A stretch of DNA of 25,688 nt, from IMG/VR virus record IMGVR_UViG_2925939204_000005; one strand, written 5' to 3'. Source of the DNA: a virus (lineage: Duplodnaviria; Heunggongvirae; Uroviricota; Caudoviricetes). A program made the position numbers and the translations under genes. The notes under the pieces are model-generated. The model saw only the letters and a list, made by a program, of their open reading frames with translations. It was not told the origin of the DNA and did no database searches. The stretch's first letter is position 1; every line of letters begins with the position of its first letter. Of this stretch, positions 8,756-25,688 are shown one piece after another.

Positions 8756-9655
8756 ATGATTGATCCACTTATTAGAAACTTACAGAGTGATATTGCACTA
8801 CTCCAGCTTTATATCGCGCAACGCAAACAGGCAGGCTTTCATGACATGGAAAGAATAATTGAGTCATTGACCATCTTTATGTTTCGCGCGCTGAAAATGG
8901 GTGAACTGGTAAACATGAATCAGATTAAAGTTAATTTTCCCGCCATTGATTTAGCTGATAATAAAAACATGATAGCAGTTCAAGTTACTACGAATGCAAG
9001 TCCAGCAAAAATTAAAAAAACTATCGAATCTTTTGAGAAAATAAATGAAATAGGAGAGAGTCTGAAAGATAAATACTCTACTTTATATATTTTTGGTTTT
9101 TGTAAAGCCTCAAGATACCTAACTCCAAGTTATTGTAAAATAATCGACCCCAGCTATTTCGTGAATGAACTTTGCGATAAAGCAGATGAAGATATGGTCC
9201 AGGATATGATTGACGCCATTCGACGCCATCATGATTATACATCATTACATCCATGGAGTGATAAAGATTCACTCGAAATTATACTCAATATTATTAATCG
9301 CAATGCAATAAAACATCGGATGAGTTGCGAAGGCAGTCTGTCTGATATGCTCACTGGTTTAAAAGAAATTAATGAAGTAATTACAAAAGGAACAATTCAA
9401 CGTAAGCAACGTTCAAAATCGATATCTGACTTCAAAGATCAAAGCATGGTGAAATTTATGAGAGGTGTAATGGATGATTTGTCTGTTATTCAAGCCATAG
9501 TGAACAAATCTAAAGTTAACCAAGGTGATATGGTTTATATAAGCCATGAAGATATGATTAATATTGATAAATTAAAAGCTAAAATAGCAAGTGATTCATC
9601 AGAGATTGCAAGGCTAAATAATATTGATATAACACTAAATGTTGTTGATTTATAA
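8756..9655 (+). CDS. SMEK-domain-like protein (299 aa), candidate defence/abortive-infection cargo
   Basis: AT-rich gene with AAGGA SD. N-terminal region (NFPAIDLADNKNMIAVQVTTNASPAKIKKTIESF) matches my recollection of the SMEK domain (PAID-LAD ... IA-QVT). C-terminal about 170 aa have no recognised motif. Confidence 0.6.
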   Translation: MIDPLIRNLQSDIALLQLYIAQRKQAGFHDMERIIESLTIFMFRALKMGELVNMNQIKVNFPAIDLADNKNMIAVQVTTNASPAKIKKTIESFEKINEIGESLKDKYSTLYIFGFCKASRYLTPSYCKIIDPSYFVNELCDKADEDMVQDMIDAIRRHHDYTSLHPWSDKDSLEIILNIINRNAIKHRMSCEGSLSDMLTGLKEINEVITKGTIQRKQRSKSISDFKDQSMVKFMRGVMDDLSVIQAIVNKSKVNQGDMVYISHEDMINIDKLKAKIASDSSEIARLNNIDITLNVVDL

Positions 9656-9969
9656 TTGTCGATTTAGCAAAACAGAGAATGCTTTGAAAGTTTCACCGAG
9701 AAATATTTATTGTGAACCTCCTTATTGTTTATCGACTTTTACTCTCCGCTCATTGCAGTACTGTCGGAGAAGGCTACTATGTACAAGAAGCAGCTAACAT
9801 AAGCGAGCATCACTATTGATATTAGGAAGAGTATATAAAAACTTCATGCTGAACCTTACAAAAGTAGGTAAACCGGCAATGGCCTAAGTGGCAGGGTCAT
9901 GTTGATCCGGCAATGCCGAGCTAATAATTAACAAGCAAATCACTCTTTCTAATAATTTGTTGAAATAAA

Positions 9970-10629
9970 CTAAATATGTATATGTTTACCAACAACCACA
10001 TATGAACTACCTGCTTTGCTCCATGATTTTATTATTTCTAAATTATTATCTGAGCATATTTTACTTACAGTATCCACATCTAATAAACCATAGTAGAAAG
10101 CATTACGAGAGTTTTGGTATATATACCCATGCAAATGTTTAATACCGCTCTCGTACCTCTTGAAATAAGAACTTTTGTATTGATTGACAATCAGTGCTTC
10201 ACCATCACTCTTTAATAATTCTCTAATCGCACTGAGGACTTTGTGAATTGTGGATTCACATGGAATTGCGGAAAGCACGTTTGCGCAAAGTATGAAATCA
10301 TAATGATTTGTTATTTTATCTATATTTTCATAAGAAACAATATTAGCATTCTTATAGTTATTTATCACGTAATCTGGAATCGTGGTTTGTACACCTCTGA
10401 TAATTTGCACTCTTTCTAGTTGTCTTCTGGAATCTAAAAATGTCACAGTTTCAAATTTATTTACTAATTGTTCTGAATATCTAAGTTTTCCACATCCAAA
10501 ATCAAGGGCATTGCCATTTTTATTAGTGCTTTCAATCTGTTTACAGAGATAGTTAGATGGCATAGTGTGCGGTTTCGCTGCATTTTCTGAACGTATGTTT
10601 ATTCCATTTATTTTGTAATTCAAAATCAA
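9970..10629 (-). CDS. Class I SAM-dependent methyltransferase (about 217 aa)
   Basis: Motif I LDFGCGKLRY, acidic residue ending beta-2 (VTFLDS) and motif-II-like DFILCANVL. The ORF-track start at 10629 is TTG; a TTG at 10623 with GAGG 6 nt upstream is an alternative. The gene starts 6 nt after the upstream membrane-protein stop, suggesting an operon. Confidence 0.65.
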   Translation of the reverse strand: MILNYKINGINIRSENAAKPHTMPSNYLCKQIESTNKNGNALDFGCGKLRYSEQLVNKFETVTFLDSRRQLERVQIIRGVQTTIPDYVINNYKNANIVSYENIDKITNHYDFILCANVLSAIPCESTIHKVLSAIRELLKSDGEALIVNQYKSSYFKRYESGIKHLHGYIYQNSRNAFYYGLLDVDTVSKICSDNNLEIIKSWSKAGSSYVVVGKHIHI

Positions 10630-10635
10630 CCTCGT

Positions 10636-11331
10636 TTAAAAAATATTGTTATTGTTAAAGAATTCTTTTATTTTGCTATCAGGTATTTGTCTTACTTGGC
10701 TTTCTGTTCTTGGTTTAACTGATGCTATGAAAATAAGGAAGTCAAATGCGACAAGAGAAATAATCCACAACCAAAGATTAATTAAAGAGCCAGTAACAGA
10801 GAATATATTTGTTAATTTGGCGATACTTATTATTAAAATAGTAACAAATGCGATTACTGTATGTTCAAAGAAAACCCAAAAGTAATAAACTTTGTTCCAG
10901 AAAAGTTCAACGTAATGTTTGTCTTTTAACTCTTTAACTTCTGGGTAATACAGTTTACTCATTACCTTGTGAGATTCATCAGTAGTTAATTTTCTCGTAA
11001 CGCCTGCAATTTTTGCTAATGGTTTAATAATTAAATGACTATCCCACATCTTCCTTATTCCAATAATTTTTGCTACATTATTATGTAGATCTAAAGCTCC
11101 ACTAATTACTGACCAAAAAACTGAAGATGCAATTGGTAATATGCCAAAGGTTAATATCCATTTAATAAATTCCTCGTAGTCTTTAACGGGGGGGATATAC
11201 TTGGCATTAATGCCAACCAATGGCATGTAGCCATAAATGACTAATGATAGGTAAAATATAAATGTAGTAATAAAAGTCGCCTTATGGAGCATAGGCAACA
11301 TTTCATTATAACTCTTTGGTGGTTCTAACAT
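10636..11331 (-). CDS. Integral membrane protein (about 231 aa, about 4 predicted TM helices), unknown function
   Basis: ATG at 11331 with GGAG SD (the ORF-track start at 11343 is TTG). Hydrophobic stretches at about residues 20-45, 65-85, 150-180 and 190-215; AT-rich codon usage; first gene of a two-gene operon with the methyltransferase. Confidence 0.6.
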   Translation of the reverse strand: MLEPPKSYNEMLPMLHKATFITTFIFYLSLVIYGYMPLVGINAKYIPPVKDYEEFIKWILTFGILPIASSVFWSVISGALDLHNNVAKIIGIRKMWDSHLIIKPLAKIAGVTRKLTTDESHKVMSKLYYPEVKELKDKHYVELFWNKVYYFWVFFEHTVIAFVTILIISIAKLTNIFSVTGSLINLWLWIISLVAFDFLIFIASVKPRTESQVRQIPDSKIKEFFNNNNIF

Positions 11332-16480: not shown

Positions 16481-16756
16481 GTGGCTTCTGTTTCTATCAG
16501 CTGTCCCTCCTGTTCAGCTACTGACGGGGTGGTGCGTAACGGCAAAAGCACCGCCGGACATCAGCGCTATCTCTGCTCTCACTGCCGTAAAACATGGCAA
16601 CTGCAGTTCACTTACACCGCTTCTCAACCCGGTACGCACCAGAAAATCATTGATATGGCCATGAATGGCGTTGGATGCCGGGCAACTGCCCGCATTATGG
16701 GCGTTGGCCTCAACACGATTTTACGTCACTTAAAAAACTCAGGCCGCAGTCGGTAA
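16481..16756 (+). CDS. insA: IS1 InsA (91 aa)
   Basis: [40 protein letters not shown]...: canonical InsA with zinc-finger and HTH. Confidence 0.9.
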
Positions 16757-17178
16757 CCTCGCGCATACAGCCGGGCAGTGACGTCATCGTCTGCGCGGAA
16801 ATGGACGAACAGTGGGGCTATGTCGGGGCTAAATCGCGCCAGCGCTGGCTGTTTTACGCGTATGACAGTCTCCGGAAGACGGTTGTTGCGCACGTATTCG
16901 GTGAGCGCACTATGGCGACGCTGGGGCGTCTTATGAGCCTGCTGTCACCCTTTGACGTGGTGATATGGATGACGGATGGCTGGCCGCTGTATGAATCCCG
17001 CCTGAAGGGAAAGCTGCACGTAATCAGCAAACGATATACGCAGCGAATTGAGCGGCATAACCTGAATCTGAGGCAGCACCTGGCACGGCTGGGACGGAAG
17101 TCGCTGTCGTTCTCAAAATCGGTGGAGCTGCATGACAAAGTCATCGGGCATTATCTGAACATAAAACACTATCAATAA
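16675..17178 (+). CDS. insB: IS1 InsB frame (167-aa annotated ORF; expressed as InsAB' by -1 frameshifting)
   Basis: [21 protein letters not shown]...: canonical InsB reading frame; the A-run slippery site lies in the insA/insB overlap. Confidence 0.85.
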
Positions 17179-18454: not shown

Positions 18455-18748
18455 TTATTGTGAGCAATACACACGCGCTTCCAGCGGAGTATAAATGCCT
18501 AAAGTAATAAAACCGAGCAATCCATTTACGAATGTTTGCTGGGTTTCTGTTTTAACAACATTTTCTGCGCCGCCACAAATTTTGGCTGCATCAACAGTTT
18601 TCTCCTGTCCAATTCCCGAAACGAAGAAGTGATGGGTGATGGTTTCCTTTGGTGTTACTGCTGTCGGTTTGTTTCCAACAGTAAACGTCTGTTGAGCACA
18701 TCCTGTAATAAGCATTGCCAGAGCGGCAGAAAACAACATTTTTTTCAT
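18455..18748 (-). CDS. bor: Bor lipoprotein (serum-resistance protein, 97 aa)
   Basis: Internal Met of ORF 18455..18796: MKKMLFSAALAMLITGCAQQTFTVGNKPTAVTPKETITHHFFVSGIGQ..., recognised as lambda Bor; lipobox LITGC; opposite strand downstream of Rz as in lambda. Confidence 0.85.
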   Translation of the reverse strand: MKKMLFSAALAMLITGCAQQTFTVGNKPTAVTPKETITHHFFVSGIGQEKTVDAAKICGGAENVVKTETQQTFVNGLLGFITLGIYTPLEARVYCSQ

Positions 18749-19976: not shown

Positions 19977-21287
19977 ATGGGTTTTTCATCAGCCCGAAAT
20001 TTGGGAAGGGACATATCGGCAGGATTTTCCCCACCACGTCGCATGCCGATTTCGGAGGCTGTTAAAAAATTCATGCGTGTTCCCAAGGGGGCTGGTAACT
20101 CGGTGCCATGGGATCCTGAACTGACACCCTACATCATTGAGCCCATGAACTGCCTGGCATCGCGTGAATACGATGCGGTGATTTTTGTTGGTCCTGCGCG
20201 AACAGGGAAGACCATTGGTCTGATCGATGGATGGATTGTCTATACCATCGTTTGCGATCCTTCGGACATGCTCGTTGTGCAGATGACCGAAGATAAGGCC
20301 CGCGAGCATTCTAAAAAGCGCCTCGACAGAACGTTCAGAAGCAGTGCGGCGGTAAAGAAAAGAATGAGTCCACGTCGTAACGACAATAATGTCCATGATA
20401 AGACGTTCAGGGATGGCTCGTTCCTTAAAATTGGTTGGCCCTCGGTCAACATTATGTCGTCGTCGGATTACCGGTTTGTCGCCTTAACCGATTACGACCG
20501 TTTTCCGGAGAATATCGACAGCGAGGGTGATGGTTTCTCCCTGGCCTCAAAACGTACCACCACATTTATGTCCGCCGGGATGACTCTGGTGGAGAGCTCG
20601 CCGGGACGTGACATCTGCGACAGCAAATGGCGACGTAAGTCGCCTCATGAAGCGCCACCGACGACTGGTATTCTTTCCCTTTACAATCGTGGTGACCGCC
20701 GCCGCTGGTACTGGCCATGTCCGCACTGCGGTGAATATTTTCAGCCAGCTATGGATGCCATGACCGGCTACCGTAATGAACCGGATCCCTTTAAAGCCAG
20801 TGAGGCGGCGTATCTACTTTGCCCACACTGCAGCGGCATTATCACTGCGGAGAAAAAGCGTGAGCTCAATAGTGCAGGAGTCTGGTTGCGTGAAGGTCAG
20901 GTCATTGATCGTAACGGCAACGTTTCCGGTGAACCGCGCCGCTCCCGTATCGCCAGTTTCTGGATGGAAGGGCCAGCTGCTGCGTATCAGGCCTGGGCGC
21001 AACTGGTTTACAAATTACTGACTGCAGAACAGGAGTATGAAGCGACAGGAAGAGAAGAAACACTCAGGGCGGTTATCAACACCGACTGGGGATTACCTTA
21101 TCTTCCCCGCGCCAGCATGGAGCAACGAAAAAGTGAACTGCTTGAGCAGCGGGCAGAGCCAGTTCCTTCCCGCAGTGTGCCAGATGGCGTTAATTTCCTT
21201 GTGGCGACAGTGGATGTGCAGGCGGGACGTCATCGCCGTTTTGTGGTTCAGGTACCGGAGTCGGAAGTTGCCGGACCCTGCAGATGA
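19977..21287 (+). pseudogene. Terminase large subunit, C-terminally truncated (first about 425 codons only)
   Basis: AGGAGG SD; zinc-ribbon-like motif WYWPCPHCGEYFQ comparable to lambda gpA. The frame ends about 10 codons after [19 protein letters not shown], at the start of the expected nuclease domain, where the sequence switches to tail-fibre sequence. Confidence 0.8.
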
Positions 21288-22090
21288 AGGCGCATTACAG
21301 AAATGGTGGTCTGTTCTACCGTTCTTCAAGAGACGGTTATGGTTTTGAGGAAGGCTGGGCAGAAGTTTATACCTCGAAAAATCTTCCACCAGAAAGCTAC
21401 CCAGTCGGCGCACCAATCCCGTGGCCATCAGATACCGTTCCGTCTGGTTATGCCCTGATGCAGGGGCAGACTTTTGACAAATCTGCCTACCCAAAACTTG
21501 CAGCCGCTTATCCGTCAGGCGTGATCCCTGATATGCGTGGCTGGACGATTAAGGGCAAACCTGCCAGTGGTCGGGCCGTATTGTCTCAGGAACAGGACGG
21601 CATTAAATCGCACACCCACAGCGCCAGCGCATCCAGTACGGATTTGGGGACGAAAACCACATCGTCGTTTGATTACGGAACCAAATCCACGAATAACACC
21701 GGGGCGCATACCCATAGTATTAGCGGGACCGCAAATAGTGCCGGTGCGCACCAACACAAGAGTTCCGGTGCATTTGGTGGCACGAACACGAGCATTTTCC
21801 CTAATGGTTATACCGCGATTTCAAATCTAAGCGCGGGGATTATGAGCACAACAAGCGGTAGTGGCCAGACTCGTAATGCAGGGAAGACATCATCAGATGG
21901 TGCTCATACCCACTCGCTGTCCGGCACTGCTGCAAGCGCAGGCGCACATGCACATACTGTCGGTATTGGTGCTCATACGCACTCCGTTGCGATTGGCTCA
22001 CATGGACACACCATCACCGTTAACGCTGCTGGTAACGCGGAAAACACCGTCAAAAACATCGCATTTAACTATATTGTGAGGCTTGCATAA
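21284..22090 (+). pseudogene. Side tail fibre protein (Stf) C-terminal fragment
   Basis: 268-aa ORF with G-A-H-T/Q-H-S repeats and the conserved ending [14 protein letters not shown] typical of lambdoid Stf C-termini; the N-terminal part (typically several hundred codons) is missing. The true 5' boundary is the deletion junction near 21250..21285. Confidence 0.75.
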
Positions 22091-22671
22091 TGGCATTCAG
22101 AATGAGTGAACAAGCACGGACCATAAAAATTTATAATCTGCTGGCCGGAACTAATGAATTTATTGGTGAAGGTGACGCATATATTCCGCCTCATACAGGT
22201 CTGCCAGCAAACAGTACCGATATTGCACCACCAGATATTCCGGCAGGCTTCGTGGCTGTTTTCAACAGTGATGAGGCATCGTGGCATCTCGTTGAAGACC
22301 ATCGGGGTAAAACGGTTTATGACGTGGCTTCCGGCGACGCGTTATTTATTTCTGAACTCGGTCCGTTACCGGAAAATGTTACCTGGTTGTCGCCGGGAGG
22401 GGAATATCAGAAGTGGAACGGCACAGCCTGGGTGAAGGATACGGAAGCAGAAAAACTGTTCCGGATCCGGGAGGCAGAAGAAACAAAAAACAGCCTGATG
22501 CAGGTAGCCAGTGAGCATATTGCGCCACTTCAGGATGCTGTAGATCTGGAAATCGCAACGGAGGAAGAAATCTCGTTGCTGGAAGCCTGGAAGAAGTATC
22601 GGGTGTTGCTGAACCGTGTTAATACAACAACTGCACCGGATATTGAATGGCCAGTAGCACCTATAGGGTAA
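22090..22671 (+). CDS. Tail fibre assembly protein Tfa (193 aa)
   Basis: ATG overlaps the stf stop (TAATG); conserved C-terminal motif [29 protein letters not shown]. Confidence 0.85.
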
Positions 22672-23259
22672 ATTCGTAATGATTACCTAAATACGTTATT
22701 CTTTTGTTCAAAAAGTGATTTTGCTATAGGTAGGGAGTATGTTCTTGGATTAAGAATAAAAATCGCCATGAAAGAGCTTCATGGCGAGTACATAAACGTA
22801 CAAAATATGATGAAAGTAGAGTGGCGTAAGCCACTATATTAAGATATGACAATAGCGAAGAAAAGTAAATAACATTTTATGGGCGTTTAATTGTCAATTA
22901 TAAAAACTAGAGTGCCCGATATTGTTTATCTTGCTTTAAAATAATGTACTCAAACCAAATTTTTGAGCTAAAAGCTCAAATAATATAAATGCAATGATAA
23001 TGTTTAATAAGACAATTAGCTTGCTTTGTATTTTCATTTCGGAATACTGTTAAGTAACTTTGATGACACTAACAATAGATCGGAATTTTCTTAGAGTCAA
23101 TGGTCACTGTTTTTGCTTGCAAAGCAAATGTTTTTGGTGGTTATAAGTTTTCTTAATATAGTCACCTATGCAACTTGTTCCTTGTGGAGATTAAAGGTTA
23201 AAATTTAATGCGAAGATGGAATTATAATATATTTTTTTATAATTAATTTAACCTTAACA

Positions 23260-23358
23260 TCGTTGCTGGCGGCATGGAAGAAATATCGGGTCTTGCTGAT
23301 GTCGTGTTGGCACTTCCTTAGTGCGGTTATCGAATGGCCAGCTGTACCTGTGGGGTAA
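23260..23358 (+). pseudogene. Fossil tfa 3' end (C-terminal about 33 codons only)
   Basis: Aligns by eye to the 3' end of tfa (22566..22671) and translates to [32 protein letters not shown]-stop. No upstream tfa body; AT-rich flanks. Confidence 0.6.
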
Positions 23359-24014
23359 AAACTTTATATGGGTGCTATTTTTATAATAGCTGGTAAAAAC
23401 TGGCCGAACTGAAATTCACTGTTGATAAAAAAGATGTGTTTGAGTGTATGTCATTGTTTTCTTAATGGAATCCACTAGAATGCAGCGAATTTAAGAAGGT
23501 GGGTTTTTATTGGAATATAAACTACAATAATGCTCAACTCGTTCGTAGAATTGTTTTTTCTTATTTTTTGGAATGCTAACCATTATATGCATTATGGGGG
23601 CGATACTTCCTGATAATTTACATGATGCATACATTGAAGCAATAAATTCAATATCATTGTCATCAAAGTTAAAGCTTTCTCCGTCCATTTCAATTCCTTA
23701 TGTGTTTGGCACAACTGATGCTGTATCCCATGAGAATTTATGCAAGTTGTTATGTTTGATTTGATATTGCAATGATAATTGTAGCTAATTGTTTTCAATT
23801 GAGTGAAAGTTTATTTCGAGTGATTAAGTCGAAAAAAAAGATTTCTCACGGTTAGTAAGCGTATTAGGTTAGTATTCAGATATGAATGGTATTAATGACT
23901 AAATTTTCAATCATATATGGATTTTTATGCTGATGAAGATGTTTTATTTGGCGATTCGTCAAGCATCTTCACTTAAGTAATCGTATATTTTAAGAGTGCA
24001 AAAGAGAAAGGGAC

Positions 24015-24115
24015 AACGTTGCTCGCACTCTGGATTAAATATAGGGTGTTGTTAAACTGCGTTGATACATAATTGTACCGGATATTGAGTGGTCTGAAGT
24101 CCCAGTCATTAAGTA
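24015..24115 (+). pseudogene. Second fossil tfa 3' end (frameshifted)
   Basis: Nucleotide similarity to the tfa 3' end; translates in two frames to TLLALWIKYRVLLNCVDT-stop and VPDIEWSEVPVIK-stop. Confidence 0.55.
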
Positions 24116-24404
24116 ATCGTTTCGTGATATGCCGCAGAAACGTTGTATGCAATAACGTTCTGCGGTTGGCTGATGCACTTTCGAGAGTGTATTGAATAAT
24201 TTCAATCCGTTATTGTTTTTACGCGTAACACCATGAAAAGACTGCTTATCTGTTGGGGTATTTTTTGGGGCATATATGGGACAGAAATAGGCCACAGATA
24301 GATAGTAAGATCGAACTCAGGATGCTTTTGAAAAAATGTAACTATCTGAAAAAACCTAGAAAGCGCCAAGGAAACCACAGAATGAGAAAAAACATCTGTG
24401 AATT

Positions 24405-25688
24405 ATGGATTTCCAGTTATATTCGCTCGGCGCAGCGTTGGTGTTTCATGAAATATTTTTTCCTGAATCATCAACGGCAATGGCGTTAATTTTGGCAATG
24501 GGAACCTACGGTGCAGGTTATGTGGCGCGTATTGTCGGAGCATTTATTTTCGGCAAAATGGGCGACAGAATAGGGCGTAAAAAAGTGCTCTTTATTACCA
24601 TCACCATGATGGGGATCTGTACCACCTTAATTGGTGTGTTACCGACCTATGCACAGATTGGTGTTTTTGCCCCCATCTTGCTGGTGACGCTGCGTATTAT
24701 TCAGGGGTTGGGTGCAGGTGCGGAAATTTCCGGTGCCGGTACGATGCTGGCGGAATATGCACCAAAAGGTAAGCGCGGAATTATCTCCTCATTTGTAGCT
24801 ATGGGAACTAACTGCGGAACCTTGAGCGCAACGGCAATCTGGGCCTTTATGTTCTTCATTCTCAGTAAAGAGGAACTGCTGGCGTGGGGATGGCGTATAC
24901 CGTTCCTGGCGAGCGTTGTCGTGATGGTCTTTGCTATCTGGTTACGTATGAATCTGAAAGAAAGCCCGGTCTTTGAGAAGGTTAATGACAGCAACCAACC
25001 CACAGCAAAACCTGCACCTGCTGGTAGCATGTTCCAGAGCAAATCCTTCTGGCTGGCAACAGGGCTGCGTTTTGGTCAGGCGGGTAACTCCGGGTTAATT
25101 CAGACTTTCCTTGCAGGCTATTTAGTGCAGACGTTATTGTTTAACAAAGCAATTCCAACAGATGCATTGATGATTAGTTCGATTCTCGGCTTTATGACCA
25201 TTCCGTTCCTTGGTTGGTTATCCGATAAAATTGGTCGCCGGATCCCGTATATTATTATGAATACCTCCGCGATTGTGCTGGCATGGCCAATGCTTTCTAT
25301 CATTGTAGATAAAAGCTATGCCCCGAGCACCATTATGGTTGCACTGATTGTGATTCATAACTGTGCGGTGCTGGGATTATTTGCTCTGGAAAACATTACC
25401 ATGGCAGAAATGTTCGGCTGTAAAAACCGCTTTACCCGGATGGCCATTTCTAAAGAAATTGGTGGTCTTATCGCTTCCGGTTTTGGTCCTATCCTGGCGG
25501 GTATTTTCTGCACCATGACGGAATCCTGGTATCCGATCGCCATTATGATCATGGCATATTCAGTGATTGGTTTAATCTCTGCGCTGAAAATGCCAGAAGT
25601 GAAAGACCGTGATTTAAGTGCGCTGGAAGACGCTGCGGAAGATCAACCGCGTGTTGTAAGAGCTGCGCAACCTTCCAGAAGTCTGTAA
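24405..25688 (+). CDS. ydfJ: MFS transporter (metabolite:H+ symporter family, YdfJ-like), N-terminally disrupted host gene
   Basis: 427-aa ORF with MFS motifs (GKMGDRIGRKK, second-half LSDKIGRR). The ORF begins inside the conserved N-terminal N-x-x-E-W-x-D-F motif (MDFQLYS...), so the native N-terminus is missing or frameshifted. Confidence 0.8.
   Translation: MDFQLYSLGAALVFHEIFFPESSTAMALILAMGTYGAGYVARIVGAFIFGKMGDRIGRKKVLFITITMMGICTTLIGVLPTYAQIGVFAPILLVTLRIIQGLGAGAEISGAGTMLAEYAPKGKRGIISSFVAMGTNCGTLSATAIWAFMFFILSKEELLAWGWRIPFLASVVVMVFAIWLRMNLKESPVFEKVNDSNQPTAKPAPAGSMFQSKSFWLATGLRFGQAGNSGLIQTFLAGYLVQTLLFNKAIPTDALMISSILGFMTIPFLGWLSDKIGRRIPYIIMNTSAIVLAWPMLSIIVDKSYAPSTIMVALIVIHNCAVLGLFALENITMAEMFGCKNRFTRMAISKEIGGLIASGFGPILAGIFCTMTESWYPIAIMIMAYSVIGLISALKMPEVKDRDLSALEDAAEDQPRVVRAAQPSRSL

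Follow-up and report, generated by a model that had tools for sequence, protein, structure and literature searches.

Stacked 3' ends of tail-fibre assembly genes within the accessory DNA of a cryptic lambdoid prophage of the Qin type

Described counterparts of stacked tfa ends

Orphan 3' ends of tail-fibre assembly genes (tfa) have a precedent in the cryptic prophage DLP12 of Escherichia coli K-12, whose right end reads tfaD, X, ybcY' (on the opposite strand), tfaX, appY and ompT, with X being a conserved hairpin treated below and tfaX an annotated tfa fragment. Here we describe a stretch of 25,688 nucleotides (nt), the IMG/VR virus record IMGVR_UViG_2925939204_000005 (henceforth the window), which is one complete Qin-type cryptic lambdoid prophage inserted in the host gene ydfJ, and in which the intact gene tfaQ is followed by two further tfa 3' ends (stubs) in the same orientation. 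The two loci share an intact or near-intact tfa, X, opposite-strand cargo, a second direct tfa 3' fragment and AT-rich accessory genes; DLP12 differs in its methyltransferase cargo, in having one stub and not two, in a stub border at about -173 (counted from the gene end) and in its attachment site. The viable phage 2G7b displays the undecayed form of the DLP12 arrangement: fibre, stub, X, methyltransferase, stub, hydrolase, ompT and integrase. Orphan tfa stubs are in fact common in viable lambdoid phages, e.g. mEp460, Ayreon, Tritos, HannyBb, PhiR63_1, phage 21 and ev207. The stubs of the window are ordinary mosaic scars of module swapping between lambda-like phages, a pattern already annotated in K-12; our literature searches found no explicit description of stacked tfa stubs.

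The same exchange genes figure in the relaxed homologous recombination by which infecting lambdoid phages exchange DNA with defective prophages. Recombination of lambda with tfaQ (Qin) and stfR/tfaR (Rac) was measured there at about 2e-6 and went chiefly through Red (De Paepe et al. 2014, PMC3945230). That work concerns allelic replacement, and covers neither stacked stubs nor their origin, which needs at least one non-homologous joint. The Din invertible segments (Mu G, P1 C, e14 P, p15B Min and those of K-12 pinQ/pinR) occupy the same slot downstream of tfa and also hold multiple tfa copies, but they are distinguished by inverted copies, complete cassettes of a side-tail-fibre gene (stf) with its tfa, an invertase and crossover sites of 26 base pairs, none of which is present here. 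The moron, like the non-essential b region of lambdoid phages, is reportedly a concept of Juhala and Hendrix. The units at this locus resemble morons in being AT-rich, in having a putative terminator of their own, in lying on the strand opposite to the late operon and in separating tfa from X, which adjoin each other in lambda and mEp460; they differ in that a piece of the adjacent structural gene closes each of them, a feature outside the classical definition.

Three tfa 3' ends, the hairpin X and their joints

The elements from the intact gene to the hairpin are as follows; L-numbers denote compared phage, prophage and contig loci.

22090..22671, plus strand: tfaQ, intact tail-fibre assembly gene of 193 amino acids (aa); Pfam Caudo_TAP (PF02413), E 2.8e-42
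22529-22671, plus strand: copy A, the last ~100-145 nt of tfaQ; conserved anchor, with a crossover inside the segment in L035 and L031
22672..23255, no strand: spacer 1, AT-rich tfa-trailing accessory segment common to viable phages; GC 0.289
23256..23358, plus strand: copy B, stub comprising the 3'-terminal 103 nt of a tfa gene; nhmmer profile positions 480-582, 46.6 bits, E 7e-15
23359..23963, no strand: spacer 2, AT-rich segment of no recognisable function; GC 0.311
23964..24116 (envelope; core 23987-24106), plus strand: copy C, stub comprising the 3'-terminal ~130-150 nt of a lambda-type tfa; nhmmer profile positions 455-575, 52.1 bits, E 1.5e-16
24132..24165, plus strand: hairpin X (CCGCAGAA A CGTT ... 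AACG TTCTGCGG), within a block at 24117-24230; the conserved sequence continues to the ydfJ junction

The original prediction, made from the bare sequence, held that two extra copies of the tfa 3' end lie in direct orientation downstream of tfaQ, and both prove to be real and to align significantly under proper aligners. With an nhmmer profile built from six intact tfa genes (582 positions), the scores of B and C given above compare with a maximum of 2.3 bits among 500 shuffles of the region. A repeat search recovers 22573-22612 in direct orientation at 23260-23299 (88%) and 24016-24055 (73%), while self-blastn aligns 22573-22672 with 23260-23359 (74% over 103 nt, E 1e-10) and 22574-22650 with 24017-24092 (77%, E 5e-10). 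The predicted limits of B are accurate to within ~4 nt, but those of C were too narrow, as this copy extends at least 28 nt, and up to ~50, further upstream. The spacers are very AT-rich, as had been stated, the intact tfaQ having a GC content of 0.485.

Whereas tfaQ is intact, with 94% identity to lambda tfa and a copy A that is 100% identical to the tfa of present-day prophages, B and C are pseudogene stubs and not genes, with no complete open reading frame (ORF) for a functional Tfa. Copy B keeps its frame ends and its stop codon, at the same position as in tfaQ, and has an internal +1/-1 frameshift pair; copy C, which is AT-enriched (GC 0.37-0.40), is interrupted by an in-frame stop and has lost 1 nt. 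Neither is annotated in this genome, though the NCBI pipeline PGAP labels the equivalents of B in L007 and L008 as frameshifted partial tfa. The longest exact runs between the copies are of 7-12 nt, and the three copies are now inert towards one another; both stubs are inert scars.

Sequence comparison further indicates that A, B and C derive from three different tfa alleles, whose 3' ends lie stacked one after another. Copy C and what follows it (24017-24167) align with lambda 22457-22608 at 84% identity, unbroken from the tfa end into X, and C includes the two extra terminal codons of lambda tfa, where A and B end in P(I/V)G and the stop. Copy B is at least 95% identical in ~580 of 5426 complete E. 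coli genomes, and all inspected copies are stubs; no intact parent was found in these 5426 genomes, in which the next best matches reach at most 77% over 100 nt, and exact 23- and 24-mers of B are absent from the GTDB species representatives. An nhmmer search at maximum sensitivity (--max) detected no tfa- or stf-like sequence in the spacers beyond B and C themselves, and the left borders of both stubs are sharp because nothing of that kind lies upstream of them. These observations bear on another account of the array, namely that a unit of tfa 3' end plus spacer was duplicated in tandem in situ and then diverged. The similar spacings of the copies (687 and 756 nt) and their direct orientation are what it would give, but spacers 1 and 2 share no similarity in self-blastn, C is lambda-type, with its two extra codons and its joint to X, unlike A and B, and spacer 1 occurs without B in many phages and prophages. 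We give such a duplication hardly any credence.

The Rfam family IS009 (RF02111) suggests a different reading, in which the stubs would be functional non-coding elements (an IS009 'small RNA' or regulatory sites) under selection. Its model matches all three copies, but only the coding 3' part of the intact tfaQ (22433-22631, 229 bits) passes the gathering score of 117, far above the weak matches at B (32 bits) and C (40.8 bits). What matches in the stubs is chiefly the unstructured 3' portion of the model; its structured 5' half is skipped in B and weakly aligned, with low posterior probability, in C. Conservation of B in three contexts, along with flanks of ~70 nt (left) and 30 nt (right), would agree with a selected element; the frameshifts, the stop and the AT drift in B and C, on the other hand, are as neutral decay predicts, and we hold a function of this type to be very improbable. 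The IS009 family itself appears to be essentially tfa coding sequence and not an independent RNA gene.

Copy C adjoins X just as the tfa end does in phage lambda, and X directly follows tfa or a tfa stub in mEp460, 2G7b and DLP12 as well. In K-12 Qin, Rac and phage HannyBb, cargo separates the two, namely a pin-ydfK/ynaE-ynfT/ynaM cassette between tfa (or its stub) and X. Direct repeats of X flank ea47 in lambda (22572-22606 and 24161-24195) and sitABCD in the prophages L004 (5582-5668 and 9397-9473) and L005. The stem of X shows compensatory changes (CCGCAG/CTGCGG versus CCGTGG/CCACGG); it is not followed by a T-run and is hence no obvious intrinsic terminator. The tfa end and X thus delimit a cargo slot, which is filled here by spacer 1, B, spacer 2 and C. 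Because C still adjoins X as lambda tfa does, the C-X junction would be the original tfa-X joint of an older resident phage.

The pin gene at the equivalent position in Qin, Rac and HannyBb also speaks for a remnant of a Din-invertase (Pin/Gin/Cin/Min) fibre-switching region with alternative fibre cassettes. However, the copies are direct and not inverted, the stubs have no stf-like sequence with them, and the crossover sites of Din-type systems lie in the fibre gene and not in tfa. The original prediction had seen neither pin nor gix-like sites, and correctly so: no invertase gene is annotated or detectable in the window, and a gix-like pattern search gave two hits at three mismatches, both outside the region, versus 2.16 expected. 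An invertase remnant is accordingly a very unlikely source of the stubs.

Comparison of the locus across strains shows where sequences have been exchanged. In the IMG/VR contigs L035 and L031, at the ydfJ locus, an S74-peptidase-type fibre with a 143-nt tfa stub replaces the intact tfaQ, and the remainder is nearly unchanged (spacer 1 is 98-100% identical to the window; spacer 2, C, X and ydfJ' are 99-100% identical). The left part of this stub is of the mEp460/L007 type and the right part of the window type, with the switch inside the tfa 3' segment, at ~22588-22595 in L035 and mosaic in L031. Breakpoints between loci cluster at the edges of the anchors, i.e. at 22672 (versus K-12), 23250 (ev099, L003), 23388 (L008) and 24117-24132 (K-12). 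The proposal that the conserved tfa 3' end acts as a recombination anchor is largely supported by the crossovers in L035 and L031, together with the experiments of PMC3945230. The site also carries variable cargo in related prophages, as anticipated: pinQ-ydfK-ynfT in K-12 and a DinI-type end in others. As a separate observation, the S74-type fibre, which needs no Tfa, is always followed by the 143-nt tfa stub (L035, 1160-1420; L031; L007; L005; L008; mEp460, i.e. L016, 4233-4355).

The joints that define the stack recur in other surroundings. The block from the truncated side-tail-fibre gene (stf') through tfaQ and spacer 1 (21900-23250) is ~97% identical in the viable phages ev099 and mEp332, and likewise in the prophage L003, which is intact and lies at serU; in all three the block stops within 6 nt of the start of B. 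The joint between spacer 1 and B is identical in the window, in L007 (a prophage beside intS/argW) and in L008 (a Rac-like prophage), where different cargo, an efflux gene of the major facilitator superfamily and sitABCD, begins 30 nt after B. At the other chromosomal site of L007, the stretch from B through spacer 2 and C to X is ~98% identical to the window, and spacer 1 to its left ~80%, with a mosaic junction near 23185; the array occurs away from ydfJ in L027, too. Since the first joint is identical in three contexts and the second stretch is ~98% identical at another site, the comparison indicates that the spacer 1-B and B-spacer 2-C joints are two old single events, inherited and moved as a block, and not the repeated anchoring at this locus that had been envisaged. 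The anchor accounts for the spread of modules and not for the first origin of the stubs. In L007 itself (NZ_CM129869.1, strain PCP06235, 6048-7644), X closes the complete stub array, and intS and tRNA-Arg come immediately after it; an integrase gene beside the b region recalls the order of genes in the vegetative phage and points to prophages that are nested or rearranged.

The same distribution bears on a collapse of tandem or nested lysogens, in which serial integrations at ydfJ would be followed by large illegitimate deletions from one accessory region to near the next tfa end. The heavy use of ydfJ as an attachment site (a prophage end is present there in ~2575 genomes) and the stacking order would suit serial occupancy, and this prophage has suffered other large deletions, such as the joint of the terminase gene with stf'. 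But the presence of the array off ydfJ in L007 and L027, and of the spacer 1-B joint in the Rac-like L008, implies that the joints predate the site or are independent of it. Moreover, two deletions that both end in the last 150 nt of a prophage of ~45 kilobases are improbable by chance, and viable phages such as 2G7b have the same kind of stacked stubs. We therefore regard lysogen collapse as improbable.

Origin of the stack

The explanation that we favour, and consider reasonably probable, is that of a stratified stack of mosaic joints, in which a resident lambda-type tfa-X junction (C) has been overlaid twice. An older resident phage, with a lambda-type tfa adjoining X, would be the source of C; a first overlay upstream of C would have brought in a module ending in a B-type tfa with spacer 2, and a second one an ev099-like module ending in tfaQ with spacer 1, such that each fibre module would arrive with its own trailing DNA. 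The left join of each module would presumably be a homologous exchange in conserved late genes. The right join, in contrast, would be illegitimate, falling inside the last ~100-150 nt of the resident tfa and leaving the stub behind: the right-hand joints that created B and C would not be homologous because the DNA to their left is non-tfa. The array would then travel between prophages as a block by homologous recombination (Red or RecA), with the tfa 3' end and X serving as portable homology at the module borders. What we infer in this scheme is the order of the events, together with the illegitimate character of the two founding joints and the mechanism behind them.

Several points weigh against it. 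No genome was found with either of the intermediates that it predicts, namely an intact B-type tfa with spacer 2 or an intact C-type tfa at ydfJ, and no microhomology is visible at the spacer 1-B joint. The order of events is read solely from position and decay, with B and C about equally diverged from the intact alleles. The stubs, furthermore, retain only the last 100-175 nt of a gene of 582 nt (tfaX ~173, the S74-associated stub ~143, C ~130 to 150 and B 103), and this clustering of four independent lengths is tighter than random illegitimate joints would give, the only account for it being survivorship of those stubs that offer homology. The left borders of independent stubs differ, yet all lie within the part encoding the last third of the Tfa protein, which is also the only stretch where blastn aligned tfaQ with a tfa gene of e14, over just 35 nt. 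This part reportedly corresponds to the conserved C-terminal domain of Tfa proteins (North et al. 2019).

Both the clustering of stub lengths in the conserved part of tfa and the sharp left borders would be explained if cassettes were inserted without an integrase, i.e. if each stub came in with its cargo on a circle or a looped-out molecule, through one homologous crossover in the tfa 3' end or through unequal crossing-over there, with X playing the same role for other cargo. The products of such an insertion are, of necessity, a complete gene, the cargo and a shortened direct repeat whose left border is sharp. Direct boundary repeats indeed bracket ea47 and sitABCD (X), the methyltransferase in 2G7b/DLP12 (tfa stubs) and spacers 1 and 2, and Red-mediated exchange at tfa is experimentally real (PMC3945230). 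Set against this, the stub lengths differ (103 to ~173 nt), neither a free cassette nor an empty/filled pair one unit apart was found, and the A/B loop-out product, in which tfaQ would be fused to spacer 2, was absent from the 60 rows sampled among 810 matching genomes. With the repeats 74-77% identical and their exact runs at most 12 nt, the signature of a hybrid repeat is unreadable, and because the repeats are too diverged for such signatures the data do not separate cassette insertion from the overlay of modules. We judge cassette insertion, the main rival, unlikely and retain the twofold overlay as the preferred explanation.

Spacer content, prophage setting and significance

The smaller features within the spacers all lie on the minus strand.

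22763..22787, minus strand: terminator-like hairpin downstream of the 33-codon ORF; 11-pair stem, then T-run TTTTTATTCT; conserved in L007
22936..23037, minus strand: 33-codon ORF, candidate YncL-like small membrane protein (MKIQSKLIVLLNIIIAFILFELLAQKFGLSTLF); unannotated; conserved in 8 loci
23072..23100, minus strand: weak promoter-like match TTGACT-17-TATTGT (9/12 positions), 35 nt ahead of the 33-codon ORF; such sites are no commoner than in shuffles
23491..23688, minus strand: annotated 65-aa hypothetical protein WP_000348576.1 (RefSeq), in spacer 2

The spacers had been taken for incoming cassettes that later decayed, with no credible ORF. For spacer 1, present in 830 E. coli genomes at 939 places, neither part of this holds: given its ~97% identity in ev099 and mEp332 and its conserved ORF, it is, by sequence comparison, normal tfa-trailing DNA of viable phages and not a decayed segment. 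The start, stop, length and frame of the 33-codon ORF are kept in 8 loci, viable phages included, with up to 19 nt differences (19% nucleotide divergence) and no indel, whereas the surrounding DNA has indels; the codon differences are 8 synonymous versus 5 non-synonymous. Against the NCBIfam family YncL (NF000537), which covers a small membrane protein of the stress response, three allelic variants of the ORF score 25, 23.5 and 22.5 bits, below the cut-off of 35, with E-values of 1e-5 to 8e-5 and a match over 28/30 profile positions. A tblastn search of phages with the 33-aa product gave no match, which its shortness or the low-complexity filter probably explains. It is thus a likely distant relative of YncL, and probably a real small-protein gene overlooked by annotation. 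Spacer 1 also shows the deviant GC content of a moron and lies between elements that are adjacent in related phages; it fits a moron insertion because tfa or its stub adjoins X directly in lambda, mEp460, 2G7b and DLP12. Hence, spacer 1 is a probable moron-like unit encoding a YncL-like membrane protein of 33 aa.

Spacer 2 is present at 604 places in 590 genomes, usually once and now and then twice in each, and was found in no phage record; diverged copies of 80-90% identity also exist. Its annotated 65-aa ORF was considered as a real gene and rejected: its relatives are only near-identical proteins of E. coli that vary in length from 45 to 83 aa, and it has no Pfam, PHROG or PADLOC match, so that it is probably a spurious call in AT-rich DNA. 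When all stop-to-stop frames of at least 30 aa in both spacers were searched, there were no PADLOC hits, and nothing below an E-value of ~0.01 in Pfam, PHROG and NCBIfam other than the YncL-like ORF; the suspected pseudogene remnants of effector or defence genes are, within these searches, absent.

The prophage around the stubs is delimited by the following features.

20-1300: integrase (annotation)
21398..22090, plus strand: stf', the C-terminal remainder of a truncated side-tail-fibre gene, fused on its upstream side to a terminase gene that is also truncated; annotated so in the identical RefSeq sequence, with Pfam Collar and Phage_fiber repeats
24166..24404, plus strand: conserved end of the prophage (rest of X and attP arm) up to the ydfJ' junction, by sequence comparison
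24405..25688, plus strand: ydfJ', host transporter gene cut by the prophage insertion (annotation)

The whole window is 100% identical to E. coli chromosomes, e.g. that of AR_0128. After the integrase, the gene order is the dicB/dicA region, hokD, the Q antiterminator, the lysis genes, iss, terminase'-stf', tfaQ and ydfJ'. The conserved end is 88% identical to the end of K-12 Qin and 86% identical to phages HannyBb and Tritos, where it lies beside their integrase, and alignments of genomes without this prophage end start only at ~24399. The stub region is accordingly the accessory ('b') region, between the side-tail-fibre genes/tfa and attR. Elsewhere in the prophage, a deletion joint at ~21255-21400 connects what is left of the terminase large-subunit gene (ORF 19977-21287) with the C-terminal portion in stf', and all head and tail genes are missing. 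Other cargo at 8756-11331 encodes a SMEK-domain protein and a class I S-adenosylmethionine-dependent methyltransferase, next to which a hypothetical gene lies on the other strand; iss, the gene for the serum-survival lipoprotein, lies beside the lysis genes (18455-18748), and an IS1 at 16481-17178.

For annotation, the locus means that B and C go unannotated in this genome, that the Rfam family IS009 amounts essentially to tfa coding sequence, and that a probably real YncL-like gene has been overlooked where a probably spurious 65-aa ORF has been annotated. The stubs themselves are neutral, with no effect on how the strain works, and their value is that of markers. They identify the 3'-terminal ~100-150 nt of tfa, with the hairpin next to it, as borders where accessory genes and host-range modules are exchanged between lambda-like phages and cryptic prophages, and this bears on how cargo for virulence and fitness (e.g. 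sitABCD, ompT and genes of the iss type) spreads. A broader proposal, which we advance only tentatively and think more doubtful than not, is that the tfa 3' end and X act together as portable 'linkers' and set the limits of cargo slots in lambdoid accessory regions, as an integrase-free cassette system; ea47, sitABCD, the methyltransferase, the pin cassette and the YncL-like unit might then all have been gained, stacked and traded among phages and cryptic prophages by single or unequal crossovers of Red/RecA at these linkers. If this is true, the signature of the system would be cargo flanked by direct linker repeats, and the stacked stubs of this prophage would be its stratigraphic record.

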